A stretch of 64,000 bases of DNA from Escherichia coli (GTDB taxonomy: Bacteria; Pseudomonadota; Gammaproteobacteria; Enterobacterales; Enterobacteriaceae): NCBI RefSeq assembly GCF_022846255.1, contig NZ_AP025682.1. One strand, given 5' to 3'. The notes under the pieces were generated by a model, which was not told where the DNA came from, did not search any database, and worked only from the letters and a program-made list of their open reading frames with translations. The translations under genes and the position numbers were made by a program. Positions 18,104 through 50,342 of this stretch are shown here, piece after piece; within the stretch, counting starts at the first letter, position 1, and every line of letters begins with the position of its first letter.

Positions 18104-18384
18104 GATTTGCTCCTTATGAATGAGTTAGCGGTATAAATGAAAAAGCTGCGTCTCCCGGAGAAGACGCGGCCTGACAAATGAAATGAATGACGTTTATTGT
18201 CTGAGAAGCCCTTCACTGGCGAGCTGCGTATTTTTATGGAAGGAGATCACCCAATAACCCCATCGGGATCCGGTAATAACCGGCCAGACTGTGATCGATT
18301 CAGATGCCATTTGGCAGCAAAAGGGCCTTCGGGCAATAAACGTGATGTACAACCCGGCATATCTGTTACTCCCTGAAAGTAAAA

Positions 18385-18409
18385 GGCCCCGGTCATAATG
18401 ACCGGGGCC
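18385..18409 (-). terminator. Rho-independent terminator-like hairpin 3' of the Ag43 gene
   Basis: Perfect 10-bp inverted repeat GGCCCCGGTC/GACCGGGGCC with a 5-nt loop, followed by TTTTA on the - strand, about 20 bp after the stop codon. Confidence 0.5.
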
Positions 18410-18430
18410 TGAAGGGGAGTGACCTGATTA

Positions 18431-21277
18431 TCAGAAAGTCACGTTCAGTGTGGCCTGACCGTTATAACCTTCAGCGCTGCTGCCGCTGACGCTGTGGGCA
18501 TAACCGGCCTGAACGCCCAGGGTGATATTTTCCCGGACACGGGCTTCCAGTCCGGCCTGCAGGTCCAGTGACGTGCCATTCTGTGAGGGTGAGAACGTCA
18601 TGTTACTCCCGGCTGCGGCTGTTCCCATGCTCATGTCACCCCGTGAGCTGAAGGTGCGGATAACAGAAGGCTGTACCCACCAGTTCACCGGCAGTTCACG
18701 CACACTGTGTTTTGCACTGTCGCGCAGGGTGTCACGGGATGAGGTGCCTTTACCAAAGTTCATATCGTTGTGGCTGCCCAGACGGAAGCCGGCACGCACA
18801 TGTTGTGCACTGCCATGCCCGAACTTCACATAACCGGCGTTATCCTGGCCGTCATCCAGGGAGAGTCCCTGCCAGGTGTACTGCAGTTGTGGCTCCAGCA
18901 TCAGATTGTCAGTGATACTGAAGGGCAGACCTGTTTCCAGTGAGCCCAGCCAGCCCCAGCCCCGGGCGCGGAAGTCGTTATTGTCCGATGACGCTTTCAT
19001 GCTGTGGCGGGTTCCCTGTGCCACAATGTCAGCCCACAGGCCGGAGGACGTGTGTACCAGATTCAGGTATCCGCCCAGACTGCCGGCATCATCCCGGACC
19101 GTGCCGGCACGGGAGCCGTCATCATCCTTAACATCAACGGAAGAATGGCCTGCAGCACCATACACTCCTGTCGTCAGTGACATACCGGCAACCTCTGTTC
19201 TCAACAGGTCACCCTCCAGACGGACGAGGCCATAGCTGCCGCTGCTTTCCGGCGTGGCCCCACGGGCAATACCGCCGTTGTTATCGTGACCGAGATGACC
19301 GCCCTGAATGCTGAGACGGATGCTGTTATTTTCACCGTTTACACCGGTCTGATGGCTGCGGGAGCCTGCCAGAATCCGGTCATAGTCCATTGCCTGTGTC
19401 AGCATGGAGGCATACAGGGGGACTTCTGCACGATAAGCATTTTCACTGCGCAGGTACCAGTCTTCATCGCTGTCACGGTTCAGGGTGTAGTTAAAGGCGC
19501 CGGCCTGAAGCGGGCGACTCAGGGCAAACGCACCTTCTTCTGTGGTGGCACCATTCTGTGCATCCACAACCCGGATACCCTGTCCGGAGGTTGCCACCCC
19601 GAGGTTACTGTTTCCGACATTTGTAAATGCAAGCCAGGTTTTGCCGGTTGCCTGACCACCATTAATCACCAGCTGGTCAGAGGCATTGCTGCCATCAAGG
19701 CGAACACGCATATTGATGGTGCCACCCTGACCGGTGAGGTTACTGGTGGTCAGTTTATGGAACGTTACCGGGGAGGCGCCTTTTGCAACAGCACGGCTCA
19801 GTACGGCATCCTGTGTCATCTGAGTATCAAAGTGAATCTCCCCTGCGTTAACAATATCGCCGGTACTGACCACATCGCCATTCAGTACCATGCTGGCGCC
19901 TTTACTGAGCTGTGTTCTGCCACTCAGACTTCCCCCGGCAGCCAGCGTCAGTGTTCCGCGATGTCCGACAGTGGTGTTGCCTGCCTGTCCCCCGGCATTA
20001 ACCGTAAAGCTGCCGCCATTTTCCAGCAGCAGGCCGCTGGCCTGACCAGATATGCCATCAATACTGAACCTACCGCTGGCATTGGTCCCCTCAACAGTGG
20101 CACCACTGTCTGCAATCAGGGCACCACCGGATGTCATGGTGACACCGGTTGCCTTACCGCCGGCAGACACTGCCAGGGTACCGCCGTCATCCACCCGTGT
20201 TTTCTGCGCTGAATGGCCCTCCAGTACATCCAGGCGACCGCCGGACTCCAGAACAACGCCGTCAGCCTTACCGTTTTCCACCGTGAAATTGCCCAGACGG
20301 TTGCTGCCGGTGACGGTTGCCGCCGTACTGGTGACCAGTGCGCCGCCCTGCTTCAGGGTGACATTCGTGGCTGTACCACCGGCGTTCACCTGCAGTTTAC
20401 CTTTCTGGTTAACGGTGGTGAAATCCGCCAGACCACCTTCCTTGATAATCTGCCAGCCGTCACTGTTAACAACAGTGTCAGATGCTGTACCTCCGTTGTG
20501 CACATACTGGTACCCCCCATTCAGCGTGGTATCCAGTGCGTGACCATGTACAGTCTGGTCGCCGCCGGCATAAACCACAGTGGTATTTGCCGTTCCTTCA
20601 GCAGCCACAATCTGACGACCATTTTTATTGATGGTGGTGCGTACGGCATCTCCGTAGACGGTCTGCCCGGTATCACCATTTTCCGCATCCGGTCCTCCTT
20701 CCGCGCCAGTATTCACAACCGTGTCGGTTGCCATTGCGCCGGATTTGACGGCCTGCCAGCCCTTCTCATTAATGACGGTACCCGTTGCAATCCCGCCTTC
20801 ATGTACCCACTGCTCACCGCCGTTCAGAGTGGTGTTCACTGCCTGCCCCTGAAGGCTCTGTCCGCCTCCGGCCCTGATAACCGTGTCTGAAACGCTTCCT
20901 CCGGCATTCACTCTCTGAAGACCACCACCGGTGACAGTAGTGTTGTTGGCGATACCGCCATTTTGTATCCATTGCCCGCCGGTATTGGCCTCGTTATCTG
21001 GCCCATACTCCAGACCGGTACTGATGGTCATTCCGTTGGCTGTACCGAAGACAATCTGGTTGTCATGATTTTCCAGTGCTCCGCCGCTCACGGTTTCTCC
21101 CGCCTGTACAACCGTGTCAGCAGCCAGTACCGGGAGTGATGTGACAGCAGCAAGAGACAGCGCAACCGCCACACCGGCGCGTTTTCCCCGTGAGCGGGCC
21201 AGTTCGGAGGCCACCACCAGGGTGCCCGTAATGTGATTCCATACCAGCCTGTAGCTGGTGTTCAGATGTCGTTTCAT
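18431..21277 (-). CDS. flu: Antigen 43-like self-associating autotransporter adhesin
   Basis: Start moved to MKRHLNTSYRLVWNHITGTLVVASELAR (extended autotransporter signal peptide) with an AAGGA RBS. Gly/Thr-rich beta-helical passenger repeats; C-terminal beta-barrel ending in Phe. Confidence 0.8.
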   Translation of the reverse strand: MKRHLNTSYRLVWNHITGTLVVASELARSRGKRAGVAVALSLAAVTSLPVLAADTVVQAGETVSGGALENHDNQIVFGTANGMTISTGLEYGPDNEANTGGQWIQNGGIANNTTVTGGGLQRVNAGGSVSDTVIRAGGGQSLQGQAVNTTLNGGEQWVHEGGIATGTVINEKGWQAVKSGAMATDTVVNTGAEGGPDAENGDTGQTVYGDAVRTTINKNGRQIVAAEGTANTTVVYAGGDQTVHGHALDTTLNGGYQYVHNGGTASDTVVNSDGWQIIKEGGLADFTTVNQKGKLQVNAGGTATNVTLKQGGALVTSTAATVTGSNRLGNFTVENGKADGVVLESGGRLDVLEGHSAQKTRVDDGGTLAVSAGGKATGVTMTSGGALIADSGATVEGTNASGRFSIDGISGQASGLLLENGGSFTVNAGGQAGNTTVGHRGTLTLAAGGSLSGRTQLSKGASMVLNGDVVSTGDIVNAGEIHFDTQMTQDAVLSRAVAKGASPVTFHKLTTSNLTGQGGTINMRVRLDGSNASDQLVINGGQATGKTWLAFTNVGNSNLGVATSGQGIRVVDAQNGATTEEGAFALSRPLQAGAFNYTLNRDSDEDWYLRSENAYRAEVPLYASMLTQAMDYDRILAGSRSHQTGVNGENNSIRLSIQGGHLGHDNNGGIARGATPESSGSYGLVRLEGDLLRTEVAGMSLTTGVYGAAGHSSVDVKDDDGSRAGTVRDDAGSLGGYLNLVHTSSGLWADIVAQGTRHSMKASSDNNDFRARGWGWLGSLETGLPFSITDNLMLEPQLQYTWQGLSLDDGQDNAGYVKFGHGSAQHVRAGFRLGSHNDMNFGKGTSSRDTLRDSAKHSVRELPVNWWVQPSVIRTFSSRGDMSMGTAAAGSNMTFSPSQNGTSLDLQAGLEARVRENITLGVQAGYAHSVSGSSAEGYNGQATLNVTF

Positions 21278-21489
21278 CAGCTTTTCCTTACAGAGGGTGA
21301 ATAAAAAAGCCGGTACCCACAAATGTGGATACCGGCAGGTACAAAACAGCATGGTCAGATAAAGTGGTTTTTCCCGGACATAAATGCTTCCCCTCTCTCA
21401 TCCGCCTGAGAAGTATCAGTCCGTTGTGTGCAATTCCGTTCTGCATGATGAAGAGATTCAGCTGCCTTTTCGCAGGCCATTAACCACTA

Positions 21490-21545
21490 TAAACGATCGA
21501 TGGTGACGATCGATACCTGTTTTATCGATCGTTTTATTCTATTAA
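21490..21545 (-). promoter_or_regulatory. Ag43 phase-variation switch: three clustered GATC (Dam) sites in the flu regulatory region (OxyR/Dam epigenetic switch)
   Basis: GATC at 21495-21498, 21508-21511 and 21537-21540 within about 45 bp, roughly 220-260 bp upstream of the flu start codon; matches the known architecture of the agn43 regulatory region. Confidence 0.6.
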
Positions 21546-21649
21546 TAACAAGGCAGCCACGCAAGAGAAACAGGAGGAGTATGAGGGGTTTGTGTCATGT
21601 TTTCAGTTGGTTAACGCAATGTAATCAGGCATTTCCTCTGGCAGAGTGT

Positions 21650-22522
21650 TCAGAAGAAAATCCAGTTCCATACCGCGCGGGCAACAGAGACCACGGTGTC
21701 ACGGACGGCACGCAGAACCGTACGAGCCACAGAGGCAACACAGACGCTCTCCGCCGTGTCAAATATCCGGTCCACCGCACCGGTAAACTGTTCACGGGCC
21801 TGCCCCCGGACAGATTCCGTGCACAGCTCGTCCTGCAGGCGGGTCATCAGGGGACTGGCGGCATGGTCGGGAAGTGCTGTCATGAGCGCACTGACCAGCG
21901 TATCCAGTTCCCAGCCGGTGCGGGCCGATACGGCCACAACCGGATGTACGGGCCGGAACAGCCGGAATACCGCATCTGTTTTCTCACGAATGTTCTGTTC
22001 CTGTGCGGGAGAAGGCTGAATACCTGCCATATCCCATTCATGGCAGGGCTCCGTTTTGTCGGCCTGCGTCACCACAAACAGCACCTGCTGATGTCCCCGG
22101 TGCAGGATGTGTCGCCAGAAATAGTCATCCACAGACAGGGCCCGGTCATCGGCTTTAATCAGCCACAGTACCAGGTCAAGTTCAGGCAGAATGTCACGGT
22201 ACAGGGCTTCATACTCTGCATCCCTGTCCCGGCTCTCGCCCACCCCGGGCAGGTCAGTGATAACCATGCTGTGACCATGGCCACTCAGACGGAAGCGCTG
22301 CACTTCCCGGGTGCCGGCGTGAACATCACTGACCGGGGTGACCTCCCCCTGAAACAGTGCATTACAGAGTGAGGATTTACCGGCCCCGCTTTTTCCCATA
22401 ATGCCAATCACGGGTTCGTGGCTGGTGAGTTTGCGCAGATGTTCCAGGATGTGACGGGAAAGTGAGTAAGGCAGGGAGGAGAGCGGTTTTTCAATTGCCT
22501 CAATGGCATCAGACGGATTCAT
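21650..22522 (-). CDS. YeeP/YkfA/YfjP-family GTPase (cryptic-prophage GTP-binding protein)
   Basis: P-loop GKSGAGKSS and G3 motif DLPG; located upstream of flu as yeeP is in CP4-44. Start placed at MNPSDAIEA. Confidence 0.65.
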   Translation of the reverse strand: MNPSDAIEAIEKPLSSLPYSLSRHILEHLRKLTSHEPVIGIMGKSGAGKSSLCNALFQGEVTPVSDVHAGTREVQRFRLSGHGHSMVITDLPGVGESRDRDAEYEALYRDILPELDLVLWLIKADDRALSVDDYFWRHILHRGHQQVLFVVTQADKTEPCHEWDMAGIQPSPAQEQNIREKTDAVFRLFRPVHPVVAVSARTGWELDTLVSALMTALPDHAASPLMTRLQDELCTESVRGQAREQFTGAVDRIFDTAESVCVASVARTVLRAVRDTVVSVARAVWNWIFF

Positions 22523-23806: not shown

Positions 23807-24943
23807 ATGACTGCTTTCACCCAAAAATTGACAGCCGCGATATCCACCATGCTGTTATGCGTATCATTAAGTGGAGTCACAAATATGAGTTACGCTGATA
23901 CAACCAATCCGAACGCGCCCGTTTCGCAGGTCGAGAAATGGGATAAAACTTTTGCTGAGAGCACGAAAGTTGATCACCGTAAGGTGACCTTTCCGAACCG
24001 GTACGGGATCACCTTAGTCGGGGATCTCTATATACCGAAGGATCGTGGCGATCGCAAGATGGCAGCAATTGCTGTTAGTGGCCCCTTCGGGGCGGTGAAA
24101 GAGCAATCCAGTGGCCTGTATGCGCAGACGCTGGCTGAACGGGGGTTTGTCACTCTGGCTTTTGACCCTTCATACACGGGTGAAAGCGGCGGCTACCCGC
24201 GAAACGTCGCATCTCCGGATATCAACACCGAGGATTTCAGCGCGGCGGTTGATTTCTTAGGCCTGCAAAAAGAGGTGGATCGCAACCGTATCGGGTTGCT
24301 CGGCATCTGCGGATGGGGTGGCATGGCCTTAAACGACGCCGCGATGGACACACGTGTCAAGGCGGTGGCGAGCAGCGTGATGTATGACATGAGCCGTGCA
24401 ATGGGGCATGGCGTGGGCGATGGCAAAGACCGCTATACCACTGCCGATCGTCGTGCCGTATTGCAGTATTTGAACATGCAGCGCTGGAAGGATGCTGAAA
24501 ATGGCGCTTTCGCGCCAGGCGGGCATGATATTTACGTTGATGAGAAGGGCAACGTCACCGCTTCCGATCGTATTTTACCGGAAACTTTGCCAGCGAATTC
24601 TAATCCGGTATTGAAAGAGTTCTTTGATTATTACCGCATGCCGCGTGGTTTCCATGCGCGTTCGGTCAACTCAACCAGTGCCTGGAATGCAACCATGCCG
24701 CTGTCATTTATGAATATGCCGCTGCTGAGTTACGCTAATGAAGTTACTATCCCTACACTCATCGTGACCGGTGAAAAAGCCCATTCACGCTATTTTGCTG
24801 AAGATGCCTTTAAGGCAATCGGCAGCAAAGAGAAAGAGTTAGTGATTGTCCCCGAGGCAAACCATGTTGATCTGTACGACAACGTTGCGGGTAAGATCCC
24901 ATTTGCCAAATTTGAGCAATTTTTCAAGGCAAACTTAAGATAA
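23807..24943 (+). CDS. Secreted alpha/beta hydrolase, dienelactone-hydrolase-like (Cys nucleophile elbow)
   Basis: Start moved to MTAFTQKL with a GAGGGGG RBS; signal-peptide-like N-terminus; G-I-C-G-W-G nucleophile elbow. Confidence 0.6.
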   Translation: MTAFTQKLTAAISTMLLCVSLSGVTNMSYADTTNPNAPVSQVEKWDKTFAESTKVDHRKVTFPNRYGITLVGDLYIPKDRGDRKMAAIAVSGPFGAVKEQSSGLYAQTLAERGFVTLAFDPSYTGESGGYPRNVASPDINTEDFSAAVDFLGLQKEVDRNRIGLLGICGWGGMALNDAAMDTRVKAVASSVMYDMSRAMGHGVGDGKDRYTTADRRAVLQYLNMQRWKDAENGAFAPGGHDIYVDEKGNVTASDRILPETLPANSNPVLKEFFDYYRMPRGFHARSVNSTSAWNATMPLSFMNMPLLSYANEVTIPTLIVTGEKAHSRYFAEDAFKAIGSKEKELVIVPEANHVDLYDNVAGKIPFAKFEQFFKANLR

Positions 24944-37508: not shown

Positions 37509-38491
37509 GCTCCTGTCTGTTTATTTAATGTTCATAAAAATGATATTCAATGTCCTCTCATGAGTATTACTCAGGAAATAATATCGTCGAATTTTTTTCT
37601 GAGTAATAAGATATAATATATCAGTTTTTCTTAACAAATTGTAGGCTGATTTGAGTTGAATCCAGATGATTGAACTCATTCAGTCAAGCCAAATGATTGA
37701 GAAATTTCGTTTTCCGATATGTGATTGTTGCGTTGTGGTTGGGATAATGTAATCTATTTTCCATGTGGGAGAAAAAACCTTCACTATCGTGTAATCGTGG
37801 ATTCAATCTGGAACGACAACGTCCAACCATTGTTCTGCAACATGATGTGAGTGTCAGTTGGTGGTTCCGGATAAAGGAATAAAAGAAGATAGATTATTAA
37901 TCCCCTGATATATAACGCGATTTGTAATTAAATAGTCTTATTTGATGTTGAACGTTAAATAGCTTCTCTATTGTGATGTAACAATATACAGTGATTAATG
38001 ACAAGCATCTTGCAATGCATCTTACAATGTTATACTTTGATATTTTTGGCTGTGTTGGTCAGAGGCTGACTTCGCGGAATATTTATTTCGTAATTCAAAA
38101 AAATATTGATGTCTTTTTTATAAACCCAAAAATCGAATGAAAGAATCAGATTGTATATCTGATACAGATCATGGAAAAATGAATGTTCACTCGTATAGAC
38201 TCCTGATAAGTCAATAGTGAGTATAGTAAATATGATCATTTATTGTTTCGTTTTATCAATCTTATTGATTATTCTTCTGTTTTTCTTCTATTCTAAGAGA
38301 TGGGTGTCTGCTTTTTATAGATATCGTCAAAAGCGCTATCATCAGAAAGTCAGGGACAAAGCGTTTAATGCTTATGCAGAGGAAATGAAGAAAAAGAACA
38401 AAGATATAAAAAAATATAAACATTTCTGGCTTCCTCCACTCTGATTCATTAGTGTGTGTAGTTCCGATATCTTGTTTTACAGGAGAATATC

Positions 38492-38722
38492 ATGATCAAA
38501 GATTCAAAATCATCGAATAATGGCGAATATTTAACGACGAATGAAATTGTTAAGATGCAGTGGCTAATGAGTAAAGCTCGTGTTAATGCTGGCAAGTTAA
38601 AGAAACAAAACACCTCTGCATCTTCACAATCAGGAAAGAATGCCTCATATTTTCTAGAAGAATTAGTATCTAATAATCCAAAAAAATTAAAATCAGGTTG
38701 TGATAGCACAAGAGAAGAGTAA
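38492..38722 (+). CDS. Small hypothetical hydrophilic protein (76 aa) in an AT-rich region
   Basis: Good SD (AGGAGAA, 6-nt spacer) before the ATG; otherwise unsupported. Confidence 0.25.
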   Translation: MIKDSKSSNNGEYLTTNEIVKMQWLMSKARVNAGKLKKQNTSASSQSGKNASYFLEELVSNNPKKLKSGCDSTREE

Positions 38723-40732
38723 TACACCGATAAACTGCTCAGCAGGAATGTTCTCGGTCACGAGTCGCTCAACTGTTGTAAATATGGCATCGGGAACTAT
38801 ATATTTGAGTTTAGTTTATCTAATGACAGGAATCCTTGTGGTCGTCTTTTTCTTGAACGATGTAGGGGCTGCGCAAAGTGATTTTCCTGCTTCTGCATGC
38901 AGTCCTTCTAAGATCGTGAGAGAGAAAACATGGACATTGGGGAAAGCTGAGAGCATCAAATTATTTAACCACGACGATTTATCCCTGCTTTGTTGTACTG
39001 CCGTAATGCTTGAGCTGGATAGTCCTGAATCACGGGGAAATCTACGGCTCCCGATTTTTAATAGTTGCGACCTGATAAAACAGCACCGTATATCCTCGCA
39101 CTGAAGGGCCGGGTTTTACAGCGTACTGGATAATTGACTATGCGTTGAAGTACAAATTGATAATGCCAGCCTGAAAACAGAATTCTCTGATCTATTTACA
39201 AGACTATATACTTGACAACGACTCTCTTGTCAAGATATATTATTTGAGAGTACCCCTGTGCCACCCTGTTATGGCTATGACTCGTGTTGGTGGTATAGGG
39301 TACGCTCTGATACTTTTAATTAGGTGAATATAGCGGTTCATTTTGGAGTTTTAACGGGTAATGTGGTTGGATTGTAATCGTCCTCTGTATTATAAAGTCT
39401 GGAGGTTGCTTTTGTAGCAATATTCTGATCTGACTCCTGCAATTGGTTTCCAATGTTTACATCATAAAATCCATTTATAATGAGGATCAATTTGTAAACT
39501 ACCGAGATCCTTATTTGGGCTTTATACCAAACTTACCTACGGTTCACTCTAAATTAAGTCATTCTGTTAGTAGCTGGATTTGCTGCGAGCTGATATTTTT
39601 CATATTTTTATATCGTGATTACCTGTTATGGACTGTTCTGCAGCTTAGATCTTAGTCAAAGCTGTGTATATTCATTACTATCGTTATCTTTTACTCGTAG
39701 GATGATTATATTGCTACCTGTACCGTTTAGTCATCGTAAGTGTAGTGGTGGCCGAGGAACACCGGATCGGTATAAGGTGAAAAAGTGCTTTTTCAGGTAT
39801 CCGCGTCAATGTTATCGTAATTTTTAGTATGACGATAACCTGCCGTGACCAGCATTTTGGTTAATAATTTCAGTATAGTATCCAGTTGTAGGTCCTGGCG
39901 TGAATAGGACAAACGTATTATCTGCAAAAACAATGCTCGTTCGGAGTGTCAGTCAGTTATTCTGGTTGTATTGGATCGAGCCCTGATTGCGTGTGATATG
40001 GAAATACTCAGTTTCATAATTGGCGATATCCCGGGAAGAACTAACAAGCTGCGTTGTAGTTTTAACTTTTGCCACAATTTCGTCATATGCTGAATTACGG
40101 TTGCAGTTCCCGCCAGAATAATCGACAAAATCGTAGCCAGCGCTAATGAAATTTAATCAGTCATAAATGAAGAGTACGCTAAAGGTTTCTGGTACTAACA
40201 AAATTCGTTTTGCCATTTCAATCCTCTGTGCAGATAATTTATTGTTGGAATGAACAGATTCCGGTTAGAAAATCACATGTTGCAATCACGAGTGGGGCAG
40301 GTTGCTTGTTCGGGGAAATAATTTACCTTGATAAAATATTAAAATTGTATATCAAGTTCTAAATACATCTCAATAAAATAAACTAATTTATTTTATTCGT
40401 TAATAATAGTTTATTCTGGAGAGGTACAGACGCGGGCAGTTCACCCAGAATATGATTACTGATACGTACCTGGTTAAACAGCCCCGATGTTGATATTCAG
40501 TAATACGAAGTTTACGACTATTTATCTGATTTCATTGTTGGGGATTTTTAATCTCGACTTAATGCTAAATACGGGCCACTTTGATGTCAGCCTTATCTGA
40601 AGGTACCGATAATGAACGGACATTCTACTATATAAATAGTTCACGATTAGAACTAATTTGTAGTACTATTATGAGTAATAGTGAATCTGGGGAAAATCAG
40701 GACATGGAGCATGGCATCATCATTTTCACGCT

Positions 40733-41800
40733 TTGCAAAGCATGCAGCTGTTAATTTTACTGATACAGCAAATGAAAGATAAATTACGATTTGAAGTGAA
40801 TGATACTCAGGGCCGTTTCATCTTTCCGGAAACATGGTTCAATACACTTATAGATGAATTTGAGGAACTGGTTGAGGCATATGATGCGGAAAAAATATGT
40901 GGGAAAAACTATATAAGTGAACTCCAGCGTCTTACCGAGCAGGTGCCTGATTTTATCGATGCGTACGCTCATTTGGCATACGTGTTTCTGGAACAGAATG
41001 CGCCATATCAAGCCCTGGATATGGCGCTTAAAGGTTTAGCTGTAGGTAACCGTTTAATAACAGAAGGGTTCAATGGAGAAATTCTCTGGATATATCCAGA
41101 GAATCAACCCTACCTGCGGGCCCTTTATGCTACAATCCTTGCCAATATACATCTTCAACATCATCAGGATGCCGTCATACTTACGGATAAAATATTGACG
41201 TATAACCCAGAAGATAATCAGGCTGCACGATGGTTACTGGGACAAGAACTGTTACGTGCAGGCGAGCGTGATCGGGCGCTGACCCGGTATTCTGATGAAT
41301 TTTCACCTTATTGGTATGAACTTGGATTTCTGCTCTTTCTTAACGGAGAGTTCGTGACGGCAGCAACTGCTTTTCGCCACGGTTTTGCCACTAATATCTA
41401 TATTGCAGATATTTTATGTGGAAATCTACATCCCTTTCCACTTCCTCTGTGGCATAGTTTCTTGGGAGGACCAGACATCGCTGAAGATTATTATGCAACA
41501 TATGGTCTGTTCTGGGGGCAATATCCGGAAGCATTACTTTTCGTAAATTGGCTCTACAATCAGTCATCTGTGTTGAATGAAAGAGCAACAATAATTAAGT
41601 GTGCAGAAGCATTGTTGCGAGAAGATGATTACGAGGCATGCGAGAAGATTCTTAAAGAACAGAAGAGATTACAGGATAATATTGACGACAGGATTTCTGA
41701 GAAAATAGTTAGGAAATACCGAACATTGCAAGGGGATGAGATTTGGCCATGGATGTTACCGTCTTCAATTGATAAGGAGCTGTCCCCTTTTGATGAATAA
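40733..41800 (+). CDS. Hypothetical helical-repeat (TPR-like) protein
   Basis: 355-aa ORF of moderate GC inside an AT-rich region; repeated amphipathic helix pairs; true start may be the internal MKDKLRF. Confidence 0.5.
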   Translation: MQSMQLLILLIQQMKDKLRFEVNDTQGRFIFPETWFNTLIDEFEELVEAYDAEKICGKNYISELQRLTEQVPDFIDAYAHLAYVFLEQNAPYQALDMALKGLAVGNRLITEGFNGEILWIYPENQPYLRALYATILANIHLQHHQDAVILTDKILTYNPEDNQAARWLLGQELLRAGERDRALTRYSDEFSPYWYELGFLLFLNGEFVTAATAFRHGFATNIYIADILCGNLHPFPLPLWHSFLGGPDIAEDYYATYGLFWGQYPEALLFVNWLYNQSSVLNERATIIKCAEALLREDDYEACEKILKEQKRLQDNIDDRISEKIVRKYRTLQGDEIWPWMLPSSIDKELSPFDE

Positions 41801-42428
41801 ATATGTGTTGCACGTTTAATATATTAATCATGGCTGGGCGTATAAATCATCATGAAGAGGTATAAATTATAATTATACCATGATTATGAACACGCCCTTC
41901 ATTCTACATCTGTAGGGCGTGATCTTCTACTGAATTTGATTGTAATTATAGCAGTATCTGTATAATGGCTTTATCAGTGAGTTAATATTATGTCGTATGT
42001 AATATAGTAACAGAACAATAATATAAAAATTAAGCTGAGTGTGGATATAAAAGAAAGTTTGTTATAGATTAAATGAAATACCCTCAGAAATATTCTGATG
42101 TAAGGTTATACATAATTGTCGACTATAATCGTATGATATTACATGAGTTTTTAGTGAGTGTGCGATTTCATGTCAGAAATGGATTGTAATGTTTTGTACA
42201 TAAGCATATTTGAGTGCTAAGTGCCTGATGGATATATGTTAAAATATATAACCCTTTGAGTACATTGTCCAAATGGATATAAGAGATAATTTATTATATC
42301 AAAAAATCTGATAACTGAAAACCTCTTGTGTCCCAATAAATAAGCTTAGTTTTAGAAAAATGAGATGAATTTATACAGTGATGCCCTATGAAGCTATTAT
42401 CATGATAGTCATGACACATAATTCTCGT

Positions 42429-43739
42429 TTATTTTAATGGACTAATATCACTATTATTATCGCTATCTGTGATTTTTTCCCCATTCACGGAGATCATTCC
42501 CTGGATATATGAATCCCATAGATGTACGTCACCTTTATGAAAAATAATGCATGACATTGCGATTTTTTGTACTTTATATATCTGTTTATAGTATTCTTCT
42601 GAGTTTAATGGTGTATCTTTCAAGCTTTCATTCCTTGCTGGAAGAATCTTGACGGGACAGATAAAATCTGTATCCCCGAGTGAAAAGACATTAACTCCGG
42701 TTATAAAAAAGATACCCGGAATGTCTTGATGCAATCTCGTATTCCAGACTTGAGGATTAAACAGTTTATATGAATATTTATTTACATCTATATAATATTG
42801 ATGAGGACGCCAATCACTGATACCCGACATACTCATCGTCATATTGATAATTATATCAGGAATAGGTTTGAATAATACACTTAGAATGAACAATATGGCA
42901 GGAGGGAGTATTGCGATAGATAGCAAAGAGTTCAACCCTTCTTCTTGTTTTTCTTCTTGCTCATTTATCACTATCACACCTGGCAACATTCCTAAAAAGA
43001 TAAAAGCTAATGCAATGCAAGAAAATGATAGAAACTGTGATAAGATATCTGCACTCTCTTCAAGTCTGATCTTATTTGTCAAAAATAGCAGGGGGATAAT
43101 CTGAACAAGCCCGGGTAGAATTAAACATAAAGGAAGAGTGTATCTTATCCTGTTCCTGGGACGATATTGTTCGTGATTCTCGTGATTCTCGTGATTCTCG
43201 TGATTCTCGTGATTCTCGTGATTCTCAATGTTCTGTTCCCGAGGGGTATTTTTAGTGAATATTAATTTTTCTGAGAGGAAATATGAGACGAAATAATTAA
43301 ATAATACTATTAGTATTACTTCTGATATGGATGGATATAGAGTATTTTCTTCTGAAAAGGTAGACAGAACTGACTTTAGCACTAATGAAAAATAGAAAAC
43401 AACACTGTTCATATAGCAAATTATAGCAATTCTGTGCGCGATTCCTTTGTGATTTTTATAATAGTCTTTATGCCATGTATATGTATACACCAATACATGA
43501 GAAGATATAAAAATCAGTGAGGTTAGAGCCATTAGAGATAAAAGGATAAATATAAAGATAACACTTAAATAAAACTTTATGTCTATTGAGTCGAAAAACA
43601 AATCAAGTCTACCGAGTCCTTGCAGATAGAACCATATTGCAGATATGGCGCATCCTGTACTAAATACAGAAGACGTTAACATGGCGAGAAAAGCTTTATT
43701 ATTTAAATGTGAAAAGATAGATCTATTCATTATAAGCAC
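42429..43739 (-). CDS. Hypothetical polytopic membrane protein with an (ENH)6 His-rich repeat loop and a C-terminal soluble domain
   Basis: 436-aa very AT-rich ORF with multiple hydrophobic segments; 9-bp tandem repeat encodes ENHENHENHENHENHENH. Confidence 0.5.
   Translation of the reverse strand: MLIMNRSIFSHLNNKAFLAMLTSSVFSTGCAISAIWFYLQGLGRLDLFFDSIDIKFYLSVIFIFILLSLMALTSLIFISSHVLVYTYTWHKDYYKNHKGIAHRIAIICYMNSVVFYFSLVLKSVLSTFSEENTLYPSISEVILIVLFNYFVSYFLSEKLIFTKNTPREQNIENHENHENHENHENHENHEQYRPRNRIRYTLPLCLILPGLVQIIPLLFLTNKIRLEESADILSQFLSFSCIALAFIFLGMLPGVIVINEQEEKQEEGLNSLLSIAILPPAILFILSVLFKPIPDIIINMTMSMSGISDWRPHQYYIDVNKYSYKLFNPQVWNTRLHQDIPGIFFITGVNVFSLGDTDFICPVKILPARNESLKDTPLNSEEYYKQIYKVQKIAMSCIIFHKGDVHLWDSYIQGMISVNGEKITDSDNNSDISPLK
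43172..43225. repeat. 9-bp tandem repeat (CGTGATTCT)x6 inside the membrane-protein CDS (in-frame, encodes (ENH)6 on the - strand)
   Basis: Direct reading. Confidence 0.9.
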
Positions 43740-43945
43740 ATCATATTCTGTTGAGTATATGTCGATTTTATAATGTCATGTTCATGCAGATAATATCATA
43801 AGTAACATTAGTTGAACAAGAACAGAGTTGTAACAGATAAAGATCTCGTTGTTAGTTACATGATCTGATAAATGTTAGCATGAAATAGTAACTATATGAA
43901 GGATATAAGAACCTGTATCATAATGTCATATGCGTTATATCTGAT

Positions 43946-44707
43946 TCAGATATATTTTAATTTTGCTGATAGTTCTCGACATGCTTCAAGAACCAAAGTG
44001 GAATAATATTCTACTTTTTCTTTTGGCATTTGAATTTCCACACCACTAATGCTGATAGCAGCAATTGCTTCTCGAGCCTGATTAAACACCGGGGCGGCAA
44101 TGCAATAAATTCCTGGTGAATCTTCTGCGTTATCAAAAGCCCATCCTCGCTCACGAATACGTGCAAACTCTAGTATTAGATCAGATTTCCGAGTGATTGT
44201 CGTTTGCGTAAATCGAGGCAATGCCTCCTCAGGTAGTAAAGTGTCAATGACGTCTTGAGGTAACCATGCGCATAACGCTTTCCCCACCCCTGAGCTATGG
44301 AGTGGCAGCTTCTTACCTACCCACGTTCTGATACCAATTGGTTGAGTGCTTTCGAGTTTTAAGATATAGATTGGAGCGACTTCCTCAAGAATGCCTAAAT
44401 GGCAGATAAGATCAGTACTATCTCTCAGTTTTTCCAGCACCGGTCTCGCTACCTTACTTATGTCAAACTGTTCTAGCGAGCGATTTCCCCATTCATATAA
44501 TTTCAGTCCAAGGAAAAAACGCCCCCTTTCCTGACGTAACAAATGGTGTTCGACCAGAGCATTCAGTAAAGATGATGTGCTGCTTTTAGGCAGAGCCAGA
44601 TCTTGCTGGATTTGACTGAATGTGGCACCAGGAGAGTTGAAAAGATAATTGCAGATTCTGACTGTTTTATCGAGTGCTGGTACTGGTGTTCTTGTTTGAT
44701 TATTCAT
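43946..44707 (-). CDS. IclR-family transcriptional regulator
   Basis: 253-aa ORF with N-terminal HTH and C-terminal IclR effector domain; divergent from the catabolic operon. Confidence 0.8.
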   Translation of the reverse strand: MNNQTRTPVPALDKTVRICNYLFNSPGATFSQIQQDLALPKSSTSSLLNALVEHHLLRQERGRFFLGLKLYEWGNRSLEQFDISKVARPVLEKLRDSTDLICHLGILEEVAPIYILKLESTQPIGIRTWVGKKLPLHSSGVGKALCAWLPQDVIDTLLPEEALPRFTQTTITRKSDLILEFARIRERGWAFDNAEDSPGIYCIAAPVFNQAREAIAAISISGVEIQMPKEKVEYYSTLVLEACRELSAKLKYI

Positions 44708-45204
44708 AAAAAAATAACATATGATTTCTTACCAATGCTAAATAGTATACCCCAATCTTTATTAATGCATAGTGATGCTTAATCATTATGTTGCAGTTGA
44801 TCGACACAGGGGGACAAGAGTAGTTGTGTCACTGCCACATCACCCGGCATGCGATTTCACATCGGGATGTTCGAGAAGCATCAATGCTGCGCCCAAGATC
44901 CACCGAAAAGAAACGTGGGAATCACCGGCGGTGGGATTCATTGTCTATGCCCGTGTAGATTAGTGTGGATTTGCTGCACAGATGGTTCCGGTCTGAGAAA
45001 TGGGTAAATTCGTCGTTTACGACGGGAAGCTGCCTACACATGTTATACATCGTCTTCGTGTATCAACATGCTCCTATAAACTCGACTCAACTCACATTTT
45101 TCATTTCACATTGTAAAAACCTTTGACATGCAGAACCTTATTCTGATTCATTATATTCAACATGAAGAACTTTTGTTCCATATACAGAACTTAGTGAGAG
45201 CGAT

Positions 45205-46104
45205 ATGTTGACAGCGTTTAGAGGTATTTTTCCGCCGGTTCCTACTATTGTTGACGCACAGGGGAAACTGGATAAGACGGGTATGGCCCGAATGATTGAC
45301 CATGTAATAGAGAATGGTGCAAACGGAATGCTGATCCTAGGCAGTGGGGGCGAATTCTCACAATTTTCTTCCCAACAACGAAAAGAGATAGCAGCATTTT
45401 GTTTAAATCATGTAGATGGAAGAGTGCCTGTACTGGTGGGGGTTGCTTGTGCCGGGACAGCAGAAACTATTGAGCTGGGACGCCATGCTTATGAGCACGG
45501 AGCTGATGGTGTGCTGGTTGTTAATCCGTATTATGCAAAACTCAGCGATGATGCCCGGTTTATGCATTATAAATCTATTGCTGATACACTTGAAATCCCG
45601 GTGTTTCTCTATAACTTTCCTGATTTAACCGGCCAGGATATTGGACTTGAAGTCATTACCCGGCTGGCCCGGGAAGTTCCTAATATCGTGGGTATCAAAG
45701 ATACAATCGATAACATCAGTCATACCCGAGAAATTATCAACCGTGTACATTCATTTCGTCCGGATTTCATTATATTCAGTGGTTATGACGAATATATGCT
45801 GGACACTCTGTTACTGGGTGGTCATGGCGGTATTCCGGCAACATTCAATTTTGCTCCGGAAATCACACGGGGTATTTATCAGGCTGTTATGGAAAATGAT
45901 CTTGATAAGGCGCGTTATTTCCAACAACAACTGGCAAAATTGTCTCCGTTGTATGCGCTTGAGCAACCTTTCTTTGGGGTGATAAAGACCGCCATCAAAC
46001 TGAGTGGACTGGACATATCTACTGCAGTTATGGCACCGGCTCTTCCGCTCAGTGATGAGAAAATATCCAGAGTAAAATCCATTCTGGAACAAATTCATCA
46101 GTAA
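45205..46104 (+). CDS. DapA/NanA-family class I aldolase/lyase (dihydrodipicolinate synthase-like)
   Basis: 299-aa ORF with family motifs (GSGGEF, NPYY, Schiff-base lysine context IVGIKDT). Confidence 0.8.
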   Translation: MLTAFRGIFPPVPTIVDAQGKLDKTGMARMIDHVIENGANGMLILGSGGEFSQFSSQQRKEIAAFCLNHVDGRVPVLVGVACAGTAETIELGRHAYEHGADGVLVVNPYYAKLSDDARFMHYKSIADTLEIPVFLYNFPDLTGQDIGLEVITRLAREVPNIVGIKDTIDNISHTREIINRVHSFRPDFIIFSGYDEYMLDTLLLGGHGGIPATFNFAPEITRGIYQAVMENDLDKARYFQQQLAKLSPLYALEQPFFGVIKTAIKLSGLDISTAVMAPALPLSDEKISRVKSILEQIHQ

Positions 46105-46120
46105 TCACGAGGGACGCAGG

Positions 46121-47638
46121 ATGAATAACTCTCAGGTACTCAAACTCAATAATCTGGATGATGTTGTGATTGCCATAACAGAGCTTCCTGCCGGAAGCTG
46201 GTTGAAGGCAGAAAATATCGAAACGCGTGACCTTATTCCGGCCGGACACAAAATTGCTCTTCGTGATATTCCTGCTGGTAGTGCGGTTAAGCGCTATGGA
46301 CAAATTATCGGCTTTGCCACTCGTGATATCCGCCAGGGGGAACATATTCATGTTCATAATCTCGGTATGGGAAATTTTGAACGTGATTATGCCTGGGGAA
46401 TAGACAGCCATCTTCCTGAGCGGGATGTCCATCAGGATACTTTTATGGGGATCAGAAGAAAAGACGGGCGAGTGGCAACCCGTAATTTTATCGGTGTGCT
46501 GAGTTCGGTGAACTGTAGCGCAACCGTGGTCAGAGCCATTGAGGATCATTTCCGTACCCGAGGCCTGAGCGATTACCCGAATGTTGATGGTATTGTCGCA
46601 TTGCCTCAGAGCTTCGGCTGCGCCTTTGGCTCTAATACTGAAATGATGAAAGTCATGCGGAGAACGATAGCAGGCTATGCCACTCACGTAAACTTTGCCG
46701 GGATTGTGATAGTGGGACTGGGATGTGAATCATTCCAGATTAAGGACATGATGAATGCCCATGGACTACATGAAAACCCGATGTTTCATACACTGACAAT
46801 TCAGGAAAGTGGCGGAACACGCAACGCTATCGAAAAGGGTATTTCGTTTATTCTTGATATGCTGCCGGAAGCCAACAATGTTAAACGTGAACCTGTTCCA
46901 GTGTCAGAAATTATCCTGGCCCTTGAGTGTGGTGGCTCAGACAGTTACTCAGGAATTTCTGCCAACCCGGCACTCGGTTATGCAGTTGATCGTCTGGTCC
47001 GTCAGGGAGGGACGGCCATTCTGTCCGAAACATCAGAAATCTACGGAGCTGAGCATCTTCTGACACGCCGTGCTATTAATCGTGAAGTGGGAGAAAAGCT
47101 AATCCGCAGGATTAAGTGGTGGGAGGAGTACTGTAAACGTACGGGTAGTGAAATGAATAACAATCCCTCCGCAGGTAATAAAGCGGGAGGGCTGACTACT
47201 GTTCTGGAGAAATCACTGGGTGGAATCGCTAAAGCCGGGACAACCAGCTTAATGGATGTGTATGAATATGCTGAACCTGTAACAGCAAAAGGGCTTGTCT
47301 TTATGGATACCCCCGGGTACGACCCGATGGCGGTAACTGGGCAAATTGCCGGAGGCGCTAATCTACTGTGTTTTACCACGGGTAGGGGATCTGCCTTTGG
47401 AGCAAAACCCACGCCTTGTCTGAAACTGGCGACCAATAATGCATTATGGCAACGACAGCGTGATGACATGGATTTAAACTGTGGCACGATCGTTGATGGT
47501 GAAGAAACGATTGAACAGGTAGGGGAACGTATTTATCAGAGAATTATTGAGCTGGCTTCAGGTAACCGTAGCCGAAGTGAAGAACTTGGGTATGGGAGTC
47601 TGGAATTTGTTCCTTGGATAATGAACTCAATAATGTAA
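46121..47638 (+). CDS. UxaA/GarD-family sugar-acid dehydratase (altronate/galactarate dehydratase-like)
   Basis: 505-aa ORF with a GAGGGA RBS; N-terminal SAF-like domain and C-terminal dehydratase domain by recalled similarity. Confidence 0.7.
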   Translation: MNNSQVLKLNNLDDVVIAITELPAGSWLKAENIETRDLIPAGHKIALRDIPAGSAVKRYGQIIGFATRDIRQGEHIHVHNLGMGNFERDYAWGIDSHLPERDVHQDTFMGIRRKDGRVATRNFIGVLSSVNCSATVVRAIEDHFRTRGLSDYPNVDGIVALPQSFGCAFGSNTEMMKVMRRTIAGYATHVNFAGIVIVGLGCESFQIKDMMNAHGLHENPMFHTLTIQESGGTRNAIEKGISFILDMLPEANNVKREPVPVSEIILALECGGSDSYSGISANPALGYAVDRLVRQGGTAILSETSEIYGAEHLLTRRAINREVGEKLIRRIKWWEEYCKRTGSEMNNNPSAGNKAGGLTTVLEKSLGGIAKAGTTSLMDVYEYAEPVTAKGLVFMDTPGYDPMAVTGQIAGGANLLCFTTGRGSAFGAKPTPCLKLATNNALWQRQRDDMDLNCGTIVDGEETIEQVGERIYQRIIELASGNRSRSEELGYGSLEFVPWIMNSIM

Positions 47639-47705
47639 TAACACAGGGCAGAGTTTATCCTGCCCTGTTGAAGTAAACACCGTTTTAGATAATTAGAGGT
47701 GAATA

Positions 47706-48713
47706 ATGGAACAGAAACCTGTGTTGGGAATTTTTTTAGGTGAAGCTGCCGGTATCGGACCAGAATTGATTGCTAAGGTTGTTGCTGATGGTACTGTCTA
47801 TAAATATTGCAGACCCGTTCTGATTGGTGATGCCCGTGTTCTTGCTCTTGGACAAAAGATTGCGGGTGTTCATTTTCAATGGGATGTAATAAGTGACCCA
47901 TCAGAGGCAGACTGGAGCACAGGAAATGTACCATTACTTGATTTAAAAAATTTCAACCCCGAAAAACTAACTATGGGGACCATTGATACCGATTCAGGTT
48001 ATGCAACCGGGGAATCATTGGTAACCTGTATGTCATTACTCAAATCAGGAAAGATTGATGGTTTTGTTTTTGCTCCATTGAATAAAGAGGCGTTCAAGAA
48101 AGGGGGCTGGGATATTGAAGACGAACATTATCTGTTTGCAGAGCAGTTAGGATGCCTGGATAGACCTCGCGGCCTGTTGAATGTCCTGGATGATCTCTGG
48201 GTTTTCCGTGTGACCGGACATATTCCGTTCAAAGATATTGCCAGCCATATTACTCCAGAAAATGTTAGCCGTTCGATTCAGTTATGCTATGACACACTAC
48301 GTATGGCAGCTATTGAAAATCCGCGAATTGCAGTTGCTGCACTTAATCCCCACGCCGGGGATGGTGGAACCTGCGGCACCGAAGAAATAGACGTGCTCAT
48401 TCCAGTAATTGAAAGTTTTCGAAAGAAAGGAATGGACATGTATGGGCCAGTTCCAGGTGACACCATTTTTATTCATGCGTTTAATCATGAATATGATGCG
48501 GTTGTTACCCTGTTCCATGACCAGGGACAAATTGCTACTAAACTGCATTCCTTTGACGTGGGAATAACTGTTGCCGCAGGACTTCCGTTCGCTATTACAA
48601 CACCAGAACATGGCACTGCATTTGATATTGCAGGTAAGGGGATCGCAAAAACAATGGCTACAGAGAGGGCTATTGCCGTGGCGGCCAGAATGGCTTCTAC
48701 AACACATAAATAA
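47706..48713 (+). CDS. PdxA-family NAD-dependent dehydrogenase/decarboxylase (4-hydroxythreonine-4-phosphate dehydrogenase-like)
   Basis: 335-aa ORF; PdxA-like motifs (NPHAGDGG, HDQG). Confidence 0.7.
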   Translation: MEQKPVLGIFLGEAAGIGPELIAKVVADGTVYKYCRPVLIGDARVLALGQKIAGVHFQWDVISDPSEADWSTGNVPLLDLKNFNPEKLTMGTIDTDSGYATGESLVTCMSLLKSGKIDGFVFAPLNKEAFKKGGWDIEDEHYLFAEQLGCLDRPRGLLNVLDDLWVFRVTGHIPFKDIASHITPENVSRSIQLCYDTLRMAAIENPRIAVAALNPHAGDGGTCGTEEIDVLIPVIESFRKKGMDMYGPVPGDTIFIHAFNHEYDAVVTLFHDQGQIATKLHSFDVGITVAAGLPFAITTPEHGTAFDIAGKGIAKTMATERAIAVAARMASTTHK

Positions 48714-48983
48714 AAATTCATAATAGCAGATAATATAATGTCTAATCTATACAGATAGATGTGAATATTATCTGCGTTATAATAAACTGTATAAGGCTAT
48801 TATAAATAACAGTCGGTGTTTTGATAAGTTGCTGGTTGTTATATCTTTAAAACGAGTTGATGATATTTATTTACTAGATATTCAGTGCGATTATAGCAGT
48901 ACTGTATCGCAAGAAAATAGCAGTGCTGGGGAAGTAGAAAGAATAAATTGCGATTTGCATGCTCATAGATAAGGATAGATCTC

Positions 48984-50342
48984 ATGTATTCAGAATCATT
49001 TGTGATGATAAGTGGGCTTGTTGCAATAGTTATACTTATCATCTTGATCACCCGATTTAAGCTTCATCCTTTTTTTTCATTGCTTATATCGTCTGTATTT
49101 TTGGGAATTGTGAACAATATTGGAGTGGCGAAAAGTGTAGATATATTTACGCACGGGTTTGGTAGTCAACTGTCTGTCACGGGGGTAGTTATCGGCTTAG
49201 GCGCAATGTTGGGGGGGCTATTGGTACAGTCTGGAGGAGGGGACAAAATAGCCGATATTATTATTGGGTCTAGAAAAATTGTTTGGATGCCTCTGTGTAT
49301 TGGTATAGTTTCGTTAATCATCGGTCTACCTAACTTGTTTGAAGTTACTTTTGTACTGATGGTACCCCTTGTGTTCTCTATTACCAAACGTTTGGGGTTA
49401 CCTGTTCTCAGAGTTGCACTCCCAATGTCTGCAGGATTAATGACAGCTCATGCGTTATTACCGCCTGGTCCGGCAACTATTATCGCTGCTACGGCTTATG
49501 GTGCCAGCATCGGAGAAACTACGCTTTATGGGGTGATTATTAGTATACCTGTTCTACTCTCAGGAGCTTATCTTTTCCCAAAAATAATGCACAAACATCT
49601 TAACGTGGGAGAACCTTTGGCACTGAATGAAACTGAACATAGACGGGGAAATAACGAACGTCAATTATATCGCCAACCATCGCTGACTGTCGCTTTGATA
49701 ACAGTTATGATCGCCCCTTGTCTGATGATTGTTGGGACTATTGGACTTGACTTTTTGCCAAAAACAGGTGTGGTCACAGAGGTATTCCAGGCACTAGGCA
49801 ATCCAGTAATAACTCTTGGACTTGCTCTGGTTTATGCCATGATATTTCTGGGACGGGGAGTGGGTTTTAGTAATGAAGAAATCCTGTCTATCAGTAAGAA
49901 AAGTATTGTGCCTATTGTTGGTTTGTTGCTAATTATCGGTGGAGGCGGTGGATTAAAAAACATACTAACAGCAATTGGTCTAAGTGATATTATCAGTAAC
50001 TTTGCTACGGATTGGTCTATTCCTCCGCTATTATTTGCATGGCTGGTGGCAGCTATTTTCCGCATTGCGCTTGGCTCTGGAACGGTGGCGGTCTCAGCTT
50101 CAGGAGGAATCGTTGCCGCGTTACTTACAGCACATCCAGAAACTAACGCAGCTCTATTGGTACTTTCAACTACGACTGGGGCAATGATTTTTTCACATGT
50201 CAGTGATGGGGCATTTTGGTTATTCAAAGAATACTTTGGACTTAGCGTACCACAAACTATTCGCACATGGAGTTATTTAGTCACGATACAGTCCATTGTC
50301 GGGCTTATAGGTGTATTGGTTCTAGGCGCTATTCTCAGTTAG
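48984..50342 (+). CDS. GntP-family sugar-acid permease
   Basis: 452-aa hydrophobic ORF with GntP-like topology and motifs. Confidence 0.7.
   Translation: MYSESFVMISGLVAIVILIILITRFKLHPFFSLLISSVFLGIVNNIGVAKSVDIFTHGFGSQLSVTGVVIGLGAMLGGLLVQSGGGDKIADIIIGSRKIVWMPLCIGIVSLIIGLPNLFEVTFVLMVPLVFSITKRLGLPVLRVALPMSAGLMTAHALLPPGPATIIAATAYGASIGETTLYGVIISIPVLLSGAYLFPKIMHKHLNVGEPLALNETEHRRGNNERQLYRQPSLTVALITVMIAPCLMIVGTIGLDFLPKTGVVTEVFQALGNPVITLGLALVYAMIFLGRGVGFSNEEILSISKKSIVPIVGLLLIIGGGGGLKNILTAIGLSDIISNFATDWSIPPLLFAWLVAAIFRIALGSGTVAVSASGGIVAALLTAHPETNAALLVLSTTTGAMIFSHVSDGAFWLFKEYFGLSVPQTIRTWSYLVTIQSIVGLIGVLVLGAILS

Follow-up and report, generated by a model that had tools for sequence, protein, structure and literature searches.

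A Cah-type regulatory region with a probable Dam/OxyR phase switch upstream of a short-subfamily Ag43 gene of Escherichia coli

The window, by which we mean the whole 64-kb (64,000 nucleotides) stretch of Escherichia coli DNA that was analyzed, carries an Ag43/Cah-family autotransporter adhesin gene on the minus strand (18431..21277; PGAP WP_089539362.1), which encodes a protein of 948 amino acids and opens with an ATG at position 21277 and the residues MKRHLN. A terminator scan revealed a terminator-like hairpin just past the stop codon of this gene (18384..18410, minus strand), with 12 pairs, 9 of them G-C, and a T-rich tail. On its other side, the adhesin gene is separated by a 372-bp intergenic region (21278..21649) from a second minus-strand gene (21650..22522), which, based on the annotation and a match to Pfam MMR_HSR1, encodes a YeeP-like GTPase of 290 amino acids. 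This is the conserved left neighbor of agn43 alleles, and a GTPase gene, either intact or truncated, was found directly upstream of agn43 at every locus that we fetched. The intergenic region between the 2 genes contains 3 closely spaced GATC sites and is the subject of this analysis. The chromosome of the probiotic strain E. coli A0 34/86 is 100% identical to the window, and there the autotransporter gene bears the annotation Ag43/Cah family autotransporter adhesin. The surroundings in the window form a genomic island with a CP4-44-like module (genes for DUF932, antirestriction, RadC and CbeA/CbtA proteins and related genes), and the same island also holds a cluster of kps capsule genes and a cdiBAI locus, along with numerous IS remnants. 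Neither dam nor oxyR lies within the 64-kb window; both Dam and OxyR are encoded by core genes of E. coli.

The product of the adhesin gene matches 4 Pfam families, all above the respective cut-offs, namely PF13018 (ESPR), PF16168 (AIDA repeats, in 6 stretches), PF18883 (AC_1) and PF03797 (Autotransporter beta-domain). Judged from these domain matches, the protein has the full Ag43 architecture, with an ESPR signal peptide, a passenger folded as an AIDA-repeat beta-helix, an AC_1 autochaperone and a beta-barrel translocator. Over its whole length, it is 71% identical to Ag43 of K-12, 89% to Cah and 96% to Ag43c of Nissle 1917, and its passenger is approximately 97% identical to the crystallized alpha-domain of UTI89 (PDB 7KO9). 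The first-pass annotation of this DNA had recognized the MKRHLN start correctly and had proposed that the allele, compared with the K-12 protein of about 1039 residues, is a shorter and distinct passenger variant; its figure of 949 residues for the protein included the stop codon and has to be reduced to 948. K-12 Ag43 does have 1039 residues, and alignment of the passengers bears out the proposal: the shortfall of 91 residues falls in the middle of the passenger, and the allele has the EJ2-BL2 subdomains of the short subfamily. The similarity to the 2 reference proteins is unevenly distributed. The stem (SL) subdomain, residues 53–345, is 87% identical to that of K-12 and 73% to that of Cah, and Cah is matched almost perfectly by the signal peptide and from approximately residue 340 onward. 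By these alignments, the protein is a mosaic, in which the stem subdomain resembles that of K-12 and the backbone that of Cah. Under the published subdomain definitions (PMC10058404), its combination is SL1-EJ2-BL2, which places it in the short subfamily SF-II and in class C4 or C6, the class label being scheme-dependent, with UTI89 assigned to C4 (PMC8993888) and Nissle Ag43c to C6 (PMC11056357). The passenger variant as such is already known and structurally characterized.

The GATC sites occupy positions 21495–21498, 21508–21511 and 21527–21530 of the plus strand, 218–253 bp upstream of the adhesin gene, and following the direction of transcription we refer to them as GATC-I (21527..21530), GATC-II (21508..21511, 19 nt after GATC-I on the minus strand) and GATC-III (21495..21498, 13 nt after GATC-II). 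They had been described as 3 sites within 45 bp, starting at 21495, 21508 and 21537; the first 2 positions and the clustering stand, with an actual span of 36 bp, and the third position was wrong by 10, the site being at 21527. Whether such a cluster could be a mere coincidence can be judged from the window itself, in which GATC is under-represented (197 occurrences versus 255 expected) and in which triples within 36 bp occur 3 times versus 0.85 expected by random placement. With p of approximately 0.06, this excess leaves room for chance, and the clustering by itself is weak, marginal evidence, for which reason the statistic was dropped as an argument. The 2 remaining triples are located inside coding sequences, of a KpsF-like gene and of an alpha/beta hydrolase gene, so that the triple upstream of the adhesin gene is the sole intergenic one in the window and also the sole one with the 13/19 spacing. 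It is the comparative evidence that carries the case, and it refutes the reading of the triple as a chance cluster: in multi-allele alignments, the 3 sites are homologous, position for position, with GATC-I, GATC-II and GATC-III of K-12 across 14 alleles, which leaves coincidence with a negligible probability.

These alignments included first 11 and then 14 intergenic regions, the latter set consisting of the region from the window and of those at 13 agn43 loci of completely sequenced E. coli strains, with K-12 flu, O157:H7 cah and Nissle 1917 fluC among them. In all 14 alleles, the sites are in register with those of K-12 and lie at the same intervals of 19 and 13 nt. GATC-I and GATC-III are invariant (14/14), and GATC-II is present in 13 of the 14, the exception being FORC_042, a natural allele that has TATC at this position. 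Accordingly, 11 of the 12 GATC columns are invariant compared with 9 of the 24 spacer columns (Fisher p = 0.0035). Between the window and K-12, just 12 of the 24 spacer bases are shared, so the GATC sites have been conserved amid a diverged background. A pairwise MAFFT alignment with K-12 gave a different register, with a 13-nt gap and GATC-III of the window placed on GATC-II of K-12; this shift can be traced to a repeat of GATCGTTTAT, which stands behind GATC-II in K-12 and behind GATC-III in the window, and the shifted register was rejected in view of the multi-allele alignments and the equal 19/13 spacing. The proposal of the first-pass annotation that the region carries the three-GATC switch arrangement of Ag43 is thereby upheld: the sites correspond column for column to those of K-12 flu/agn43, they fall into the OxyR-binding region of the characterized alleles, and they are accompanied by the same −10 box and fall at the start of an IS102/IsrC leader.

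The aligned regions fall into 2 sequence types, the Cah type, to which the window belongs, and the K-12 type. At a coverage of at least 80%, the Cah type was detected in 3,446 and the K-12 type in 1,782 of 5,426 complete E. coli genomes, which makes the former, with about two thirds of the genomes, the majority type. The regulatory type goes together with the length of the protein, Cah-type regions preceding Ag43 proteins of 948–949 amino acids and K-12-type regions preceding those of 1039–1040 amino acids in the sampled loci, and this association was kept in 14 of the 14. Our literature search found neither a dissection of the Cah-type regulatory region nor methylome data on a Cah-type allele; the methylome papers on ST131 and O111 name Ag43 as background only, and a survey of Ag43 diversity (PMC10058404) contains nothing on regulatory regions.

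Upstream of the GATC sites, the alignments delimit a promoter. The −10 hexamer TAGAAT (21536..21541, minus strand), 5 nt upstream of GATC-I, is identical to that of K-12 and nearly invariant across the 14 alleles of both types, the exceptions being NT1N34 and EA7, with TAGAAC, and JJ2434, which carries a base change just upstream (AAAGAAT). The stretch AAAACGATC, which joins the −10 box to GATC-I, is likewise invariant bar single-base changes in the same 3 alleles. A putative −35 hexamer, TTGCGT (21559..21564, minus strand), is located 17 nt upstream of the −10 box and aligns, at the same 17-nt spacing, with TTGTCC of K-12; the TCTCTTG of this region is invariant in the 14 alleles. Agreement of the −35 hexamer with the consensus is limited to 3 of 6 positions; for this reason, a consensus promoter scan called no promoter at this region, and the promoter was assigned by homology with characterized alleles and not by the scan. 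It would be a sigma-70-type promoter, TTGCGT-17 nt-TAGAAT, overlapped at the −10 box and the transcription start by a putative OxyR site, which is described below.

The transcript expected from this promoter has a leader that can be recognized as a known RNA family. The minus strand of 21296..21532 matches the IS102/IsrC RNA (Rfam RF00124) over all model positions (1–206 of 206) with a score of 70.7 bits (gathering score, 46; E = 1.7e-11), and this full-length covariance match above the gathering score covers the 3′ terminator stem as well. The match begins with ACGAUC, 2 bases ahead of GATC-I. If the 5′ end of the Rfam model is taken as a guide, transcription would start at about 21532–21528; given that 21532 is only 4 nt past the −10 box, transcription may in truth begin a few bases further downstream. 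In a leader of approximately 250 nt, the GATC triple takes up about the first 37 nt. Toward its 3′ end, the leader contains a hairpin resembling an intrinsic terminator (21303..21336, minus strand; terminator scan), whose 12-bp stem encloses a 4-nt loop and is followed by 6 T; this hairpin is present in both the minimum-energy and the centroid fold. Its sequence hardly varies among the alleles of both regulatory types; the sole change in the stem is G to A, which turns a G-U into an A-U pair. A scan of genome contigs with the invariant 17-mer of this terminator returned 42 matches, about as many as chance would give; all were in unrelated taxa, and Escherichia was not among them. The hairpin is followed by a Shine-Dalgarno sequence, AAGGA (21285..21289, minus strand; read from the sequence), 7 nt before the ATG and invariant in 11 alleles.

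The overlap between leader and GATC sites raises the question of whether these palindromes serve mainly the structure of the RNA or DNA, for instance as a 5′ stem-loop that stabilizes the leader, or form a SeqA-binding cluster, rather than being a site of competition between OxyR and Dam. In the predicted fold, the first 27 nt of the leader do form a 10-bp hairpin from the palindromes of GATC-I and GATC-II, and the Rfam model of IS102 has a 5′ stem as well, built from GATC-II and GATC-III. However, the partners differ between the two, I with II in the fold of the window and II with III in the model, while the GATC tetranucleotides stay, a pattern suggesting that the tetranucleotide, and not any one stem, has been under selection. 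The fold of the whole leader, moreover, is only modestly better than that of shuffled sequence (z = −2.3), and in K-12 the switch has been ascribed to Dam and OxyR, with maintenance of the OFF state attributed to OxyR and not to sequestration by SeqA (PMC13337833). We therefore regard a primarily structural or SeqA-related role of the triple as very improbable and favor the Dam/OxyR competition site.

To describe the putative OxyR site, we scored half-sites out of 10 against the consensus ATAGnTnnnAnCTAT, as quoted in PMC2909390. Two candidate half-sites were found around the GATC sites. The first, half-site A (ATAGAATAAAACGAT; 21528..21542, minus strand), begins 12 nt before GATC-I and overlaps both this site and the −10 box, which lies inside it; it scores 8/10 here, as in the Cah type generally, and 7–8/10 in the K-12 type and hence in all 14 alleles. 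The second, half-site C (ATCGTCACCATCGAT; 21496..21510, minus strand), begins 20 nt after GATC-I and 32 nt after half-site A and covers GATC-II and GATC-III, with a score of 7/10 in the window and of 7–8/10 in both types and all 14 alleles. The conventional upstream partner, half-site B, which begins 2 nt before GATC-I, behaves differently: it scores 5–6/10 in the K-12 type (6/10 in K-12) but 2/10 in the window and 1–2/10 in all 9 Cah-type alleles. As a result, the register that scores best for K-12, B with C at a distance of 22 nt, scores 14/20 in K-12 versus 9/20 in the window and 9–10/20 in Cah-type alleles. By contrast, the pair of A and C, a 47-bp site (21496..21542) with a 32-nt spacing, scores 15/20 here and 15–16/20 in all 14 alleles. 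The window contains 2 sites at this level, that of A and C included, and since 15/20 arises by chance approximately once per 64 kb, the motif match alone proves little. A spacing of 32 bp between half-sites has been described as canonical for reduced OxyR in the papers on gtr and opvAB. An OxyR site covering roughly −10 to +37 is a plausible reading of this arrangement.

The weakness of half-site B admits 2 further readings. One is that the GATC triplet of Cah-type regions is an inherited relic, in which the upstream half-site has decayed and OxyR is no longer usefully bound, with expression of the allele being constitutive or depending chiefly on the leader terminator or on other factors. Scores of 1–2/10 in 9 Cah-type alleles against 5–6/10 in the K-12 type, full-site matches of just 9–10/20 in the K-12 register and the natural loss of GATC-II in FORC_042 all would fit this. 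Yet 13 of the 14 alleles have kept the GATC sites and their exact spacing, even though the 2 types differ at half of the spacer bases; no allele has lost half-site A or C, which keep the spacing of reduced OxyR throughout; and the near-identical Nissle allele is expressed in a switch-like manner (see below). Taken jointly, loss of OxyR control and the regulation that would replace it appear improbable to us. The other reading retains OxyR as the regulator and supposes that the Cah-type region engages it unlike the K-12 allele, perhaps being bound only in the extended mode of reduced OxyR. We put this forward tentatively, as something rather unlikely though less so than the loss of OxyR control; if true, Cah-type alleles would switch at different rates, or oxidized OxyR would no longer repress them, in which case oxidative stress could bias a Cah-type allele to ON while leaving a K-12 allele indifferent.

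Collectively, the alignments, the promoter and the leader make it very probable that the region is an agn43/cah regulatory region with an epigenetic phase switch of the classical Dam/OxyR kind; for this locus, the binding of OxyR and the differential methylation are inferred by homology. In K-12, the OFF state is the one in which OxyR occupies the unmethylated GATC region, where it represses transcription and keeps Dam away from the GATC sites; in the ON state, the GATC sites are methylated, which stops OxyR from binding (PMC3764049, PMC4872104, PMC13337833). Transferred to the window, the model would run as follows. The promoter would start transcription at approximately 21532–21528, at or just before GATC-I. 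As long as the GATC sites are unmethylated, a tetramer of OxyR would bind the approximately 47-bp site (21542..21496) and cover the −10 box, the transcription start and the 3 GATC sites, excluding both RNA polymerase and Dam and producing a heritable OFF state. When, following replication, Dam methylates the GATC sites first, OxyR would be excluded and the gene would be ON. Transcripts initiated in this state would still have to pass the leader terminator, just before the ribosome-binding site, for Ag43 to be expressed, and the product under this control would be the 948-residue, short-subfamily Ag43, which would mediate cell–cell aggregation.

Indirect support for switching of a Cah-type allele may come from published data on Nissle 1917. 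In a plasmid-cured, single-colony derivative of this strain, fluC and the downstream gene yfjQ displayed a massive, selective rise in an all-or-none manner (PMC11056357). We read this derivative as an ON-phase clone, an interpretation that is ours and not that of the authors (PMC11056357); such a single-colony ON-phase pitfall has been described (PMC3764049).

The locus is a textbook system in a sequenced strain and, as such, already known, and its importance beyond correct annotation is small. What seems mildly new is that the majority, Cah-type region, as read here from its motifs, lacks the conventional upstream OxyR half-site and keeps a pair of half-sites at the spacing of reduced OxyR. 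For users of the strain, the practical meaning is that expression of Ag43, and with it aggregation and biofilm formation, should vary from colony to colony, and that single-colony derivatives may differ sharply for epigenetic reasons. Because the upstream half of the candidate OxyR site of the majority type departs from the K-12 model, the switching rates measured for K-12 and the indifference of its switch to whether OxyR is oxidized or reduced may not carry over unchanged to most agn43 alleles of E. coli.

Compared with the characterized systems, the region shares with K-12 flu/agn43 the 3 GATC sites at 19/13 spacing immediately downstream of an identical TAGAAT box, the type of the candidate downstream OxyR half-site (ATCGnnnnnATCGAT), the leader-terminator hairpin and the ribosome-binding site, as well as the setting between an upstream gene for a YeeP-like GTPase and a downstream gene of the Ag43 family. 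It differs from K-12 in belonging to the other regulatory sequence type, such that Megablast aligns just 27% of a 420-bp query from the window, and in the length of the intergenic region (372 bp versus 327 bp in K-12) and the length and internal sequence of the leader. The spacer between GATC-I and GATC-II is GATAAAACAGGTATC in the window and AATATCTATTTTATC in K-12; the former is devoid of the CTAT element of the upstream OxyR half-site, which accounts for the drop of the half-site B score from 6/10 in K-12 to 2/10. The cah gene of O157:H7, which encodes a calcium-binding Ag43 homologue, is closer, with the same regulatory type (90% identity over 420 bp) and a protein with 89% overall identity and hardly any differences from residue 340 onward. 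Unlike in the window, however, the half-site over GATC-II and GATC-III of cah is ATCGTTTATATCGAT, the same as in K-12, rather than ATCGTCACCATCGAT, and in the passenger stem (SL, residues 53–345) the identity to Cah is 73%, compared with 87% to K-12. Ag43c of Nissle 1917 (fluC) shares the length of 948 residues (96% identity), a Cah-type regulatory region and a DUF932 gene further downstream; what sets it, and the UTI89 protein of PDB 7KO9, apart from the adhesin described here is a few dozen substitutions. The gtr and opvAB systems of Salmonella also have GATC pairs 13 nt apart within OxyR half-sites, and half-sites 32 bp apart. There, alternative OxyR sites are located upstream of the promoter and OxyR can also activate (PMC2909390), whereas the agn43 region of the window would have a single site over the −10 box and the transcription start, with OxyR acting only as a repressor.

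The length of the Ag43 protein tracks the type of the agn43 regulatory region in all 14 loci compared, namely the window and 13 loci from complete E. coli genomes (L002-L011 and L054-L056). Cah-type regulatory regions are found with alleles of 948-949 aa, whereas K-12-type regions are found with alleles of 1039-1040 aa. Despite its Cah-type regulatory region, the window allele carries a K-12-like SL, the stem subdomain of the passenger, which implies recombination breakpoints within the gene. One natural Cah-type allele, that of E. coli FORC_042 (NZ_CP025318.1, L005:3415-3535), has TATC in place of GATC-II, the second of the three Dam targets of the phase switch, leaving 2 Dam targets in the FORC_042 switch; the remainder of its regulatory region is intact.

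Clusters of GATC sites also occur elsewhere in the window. Two tight ones lie inside coding sequences, with 3 sites in 36 bp (12066-12101) in a KpsF-like gene and 4 sites in 47 bp (24007-24053) in an alpha/beta hydrolase gene. A second, loose triple (18245, 18267, and 18293; span of 52 bp, 18245-18296) is located in the spacer of 327 bp that separates the terminator hairpin of Ag43 (18410..18384) from the DUF932 gene, where other loci contain a frameshifted DUF905 gene. Against the canonical OxyR consensus with half-sites spaced by 22 nt, the site that scores highest anywhere in the window (532-568; 16 of 20 consensus positions, with approximately 0.06 such sites expected by chance) falls within the coding sequence of a TPR protein (400..1557) in the capsule region and is probably an AT-rich coincidence. 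The island also holds a complete annotated contact-dependent inhibition locus (approximately 37900-50000 of the window; 1104630-1116652 of the record), comprising, according to the annotation, a cdiB-like gene of the ShlB/FhaC family and a 9.9-kb cdiA described as a tRNA-nuclease effector, followed downstream by a small ORF which is probably the immunity gene.

The 420-bp regulatory query from the window matches a second place in the A0 34/86 chromosome (NZ_CP120567.1), outside the window; this strain probably has another agn43-type locus, which would switch independently. A search of species-representative genomes with a 17-mer invariant in 11 of 11 E. coli agn43 leaders yielded no match in Escherichia or Shigella, and all 42 matches, found in unrelated taxa, resemble chance occurrences. 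Either the representatives are devoid of agn43 or some property of the collection blocks a match.

The regulatory type of the window is shared by Ag43c of E. coli Nissle 1917 (fluC, L054), a protein of 948 aa. A "massive increase in Ag43c" has been reported in Nissle following the curing of its plasmids, with the downstream DUF932 gene, yfjQ, also being upregulated (PMC11056357). The joint rise of Ag43c and yfjQ does not look like a plasmid effect, but like the outcome of an ON-phase colony combined with read-through.
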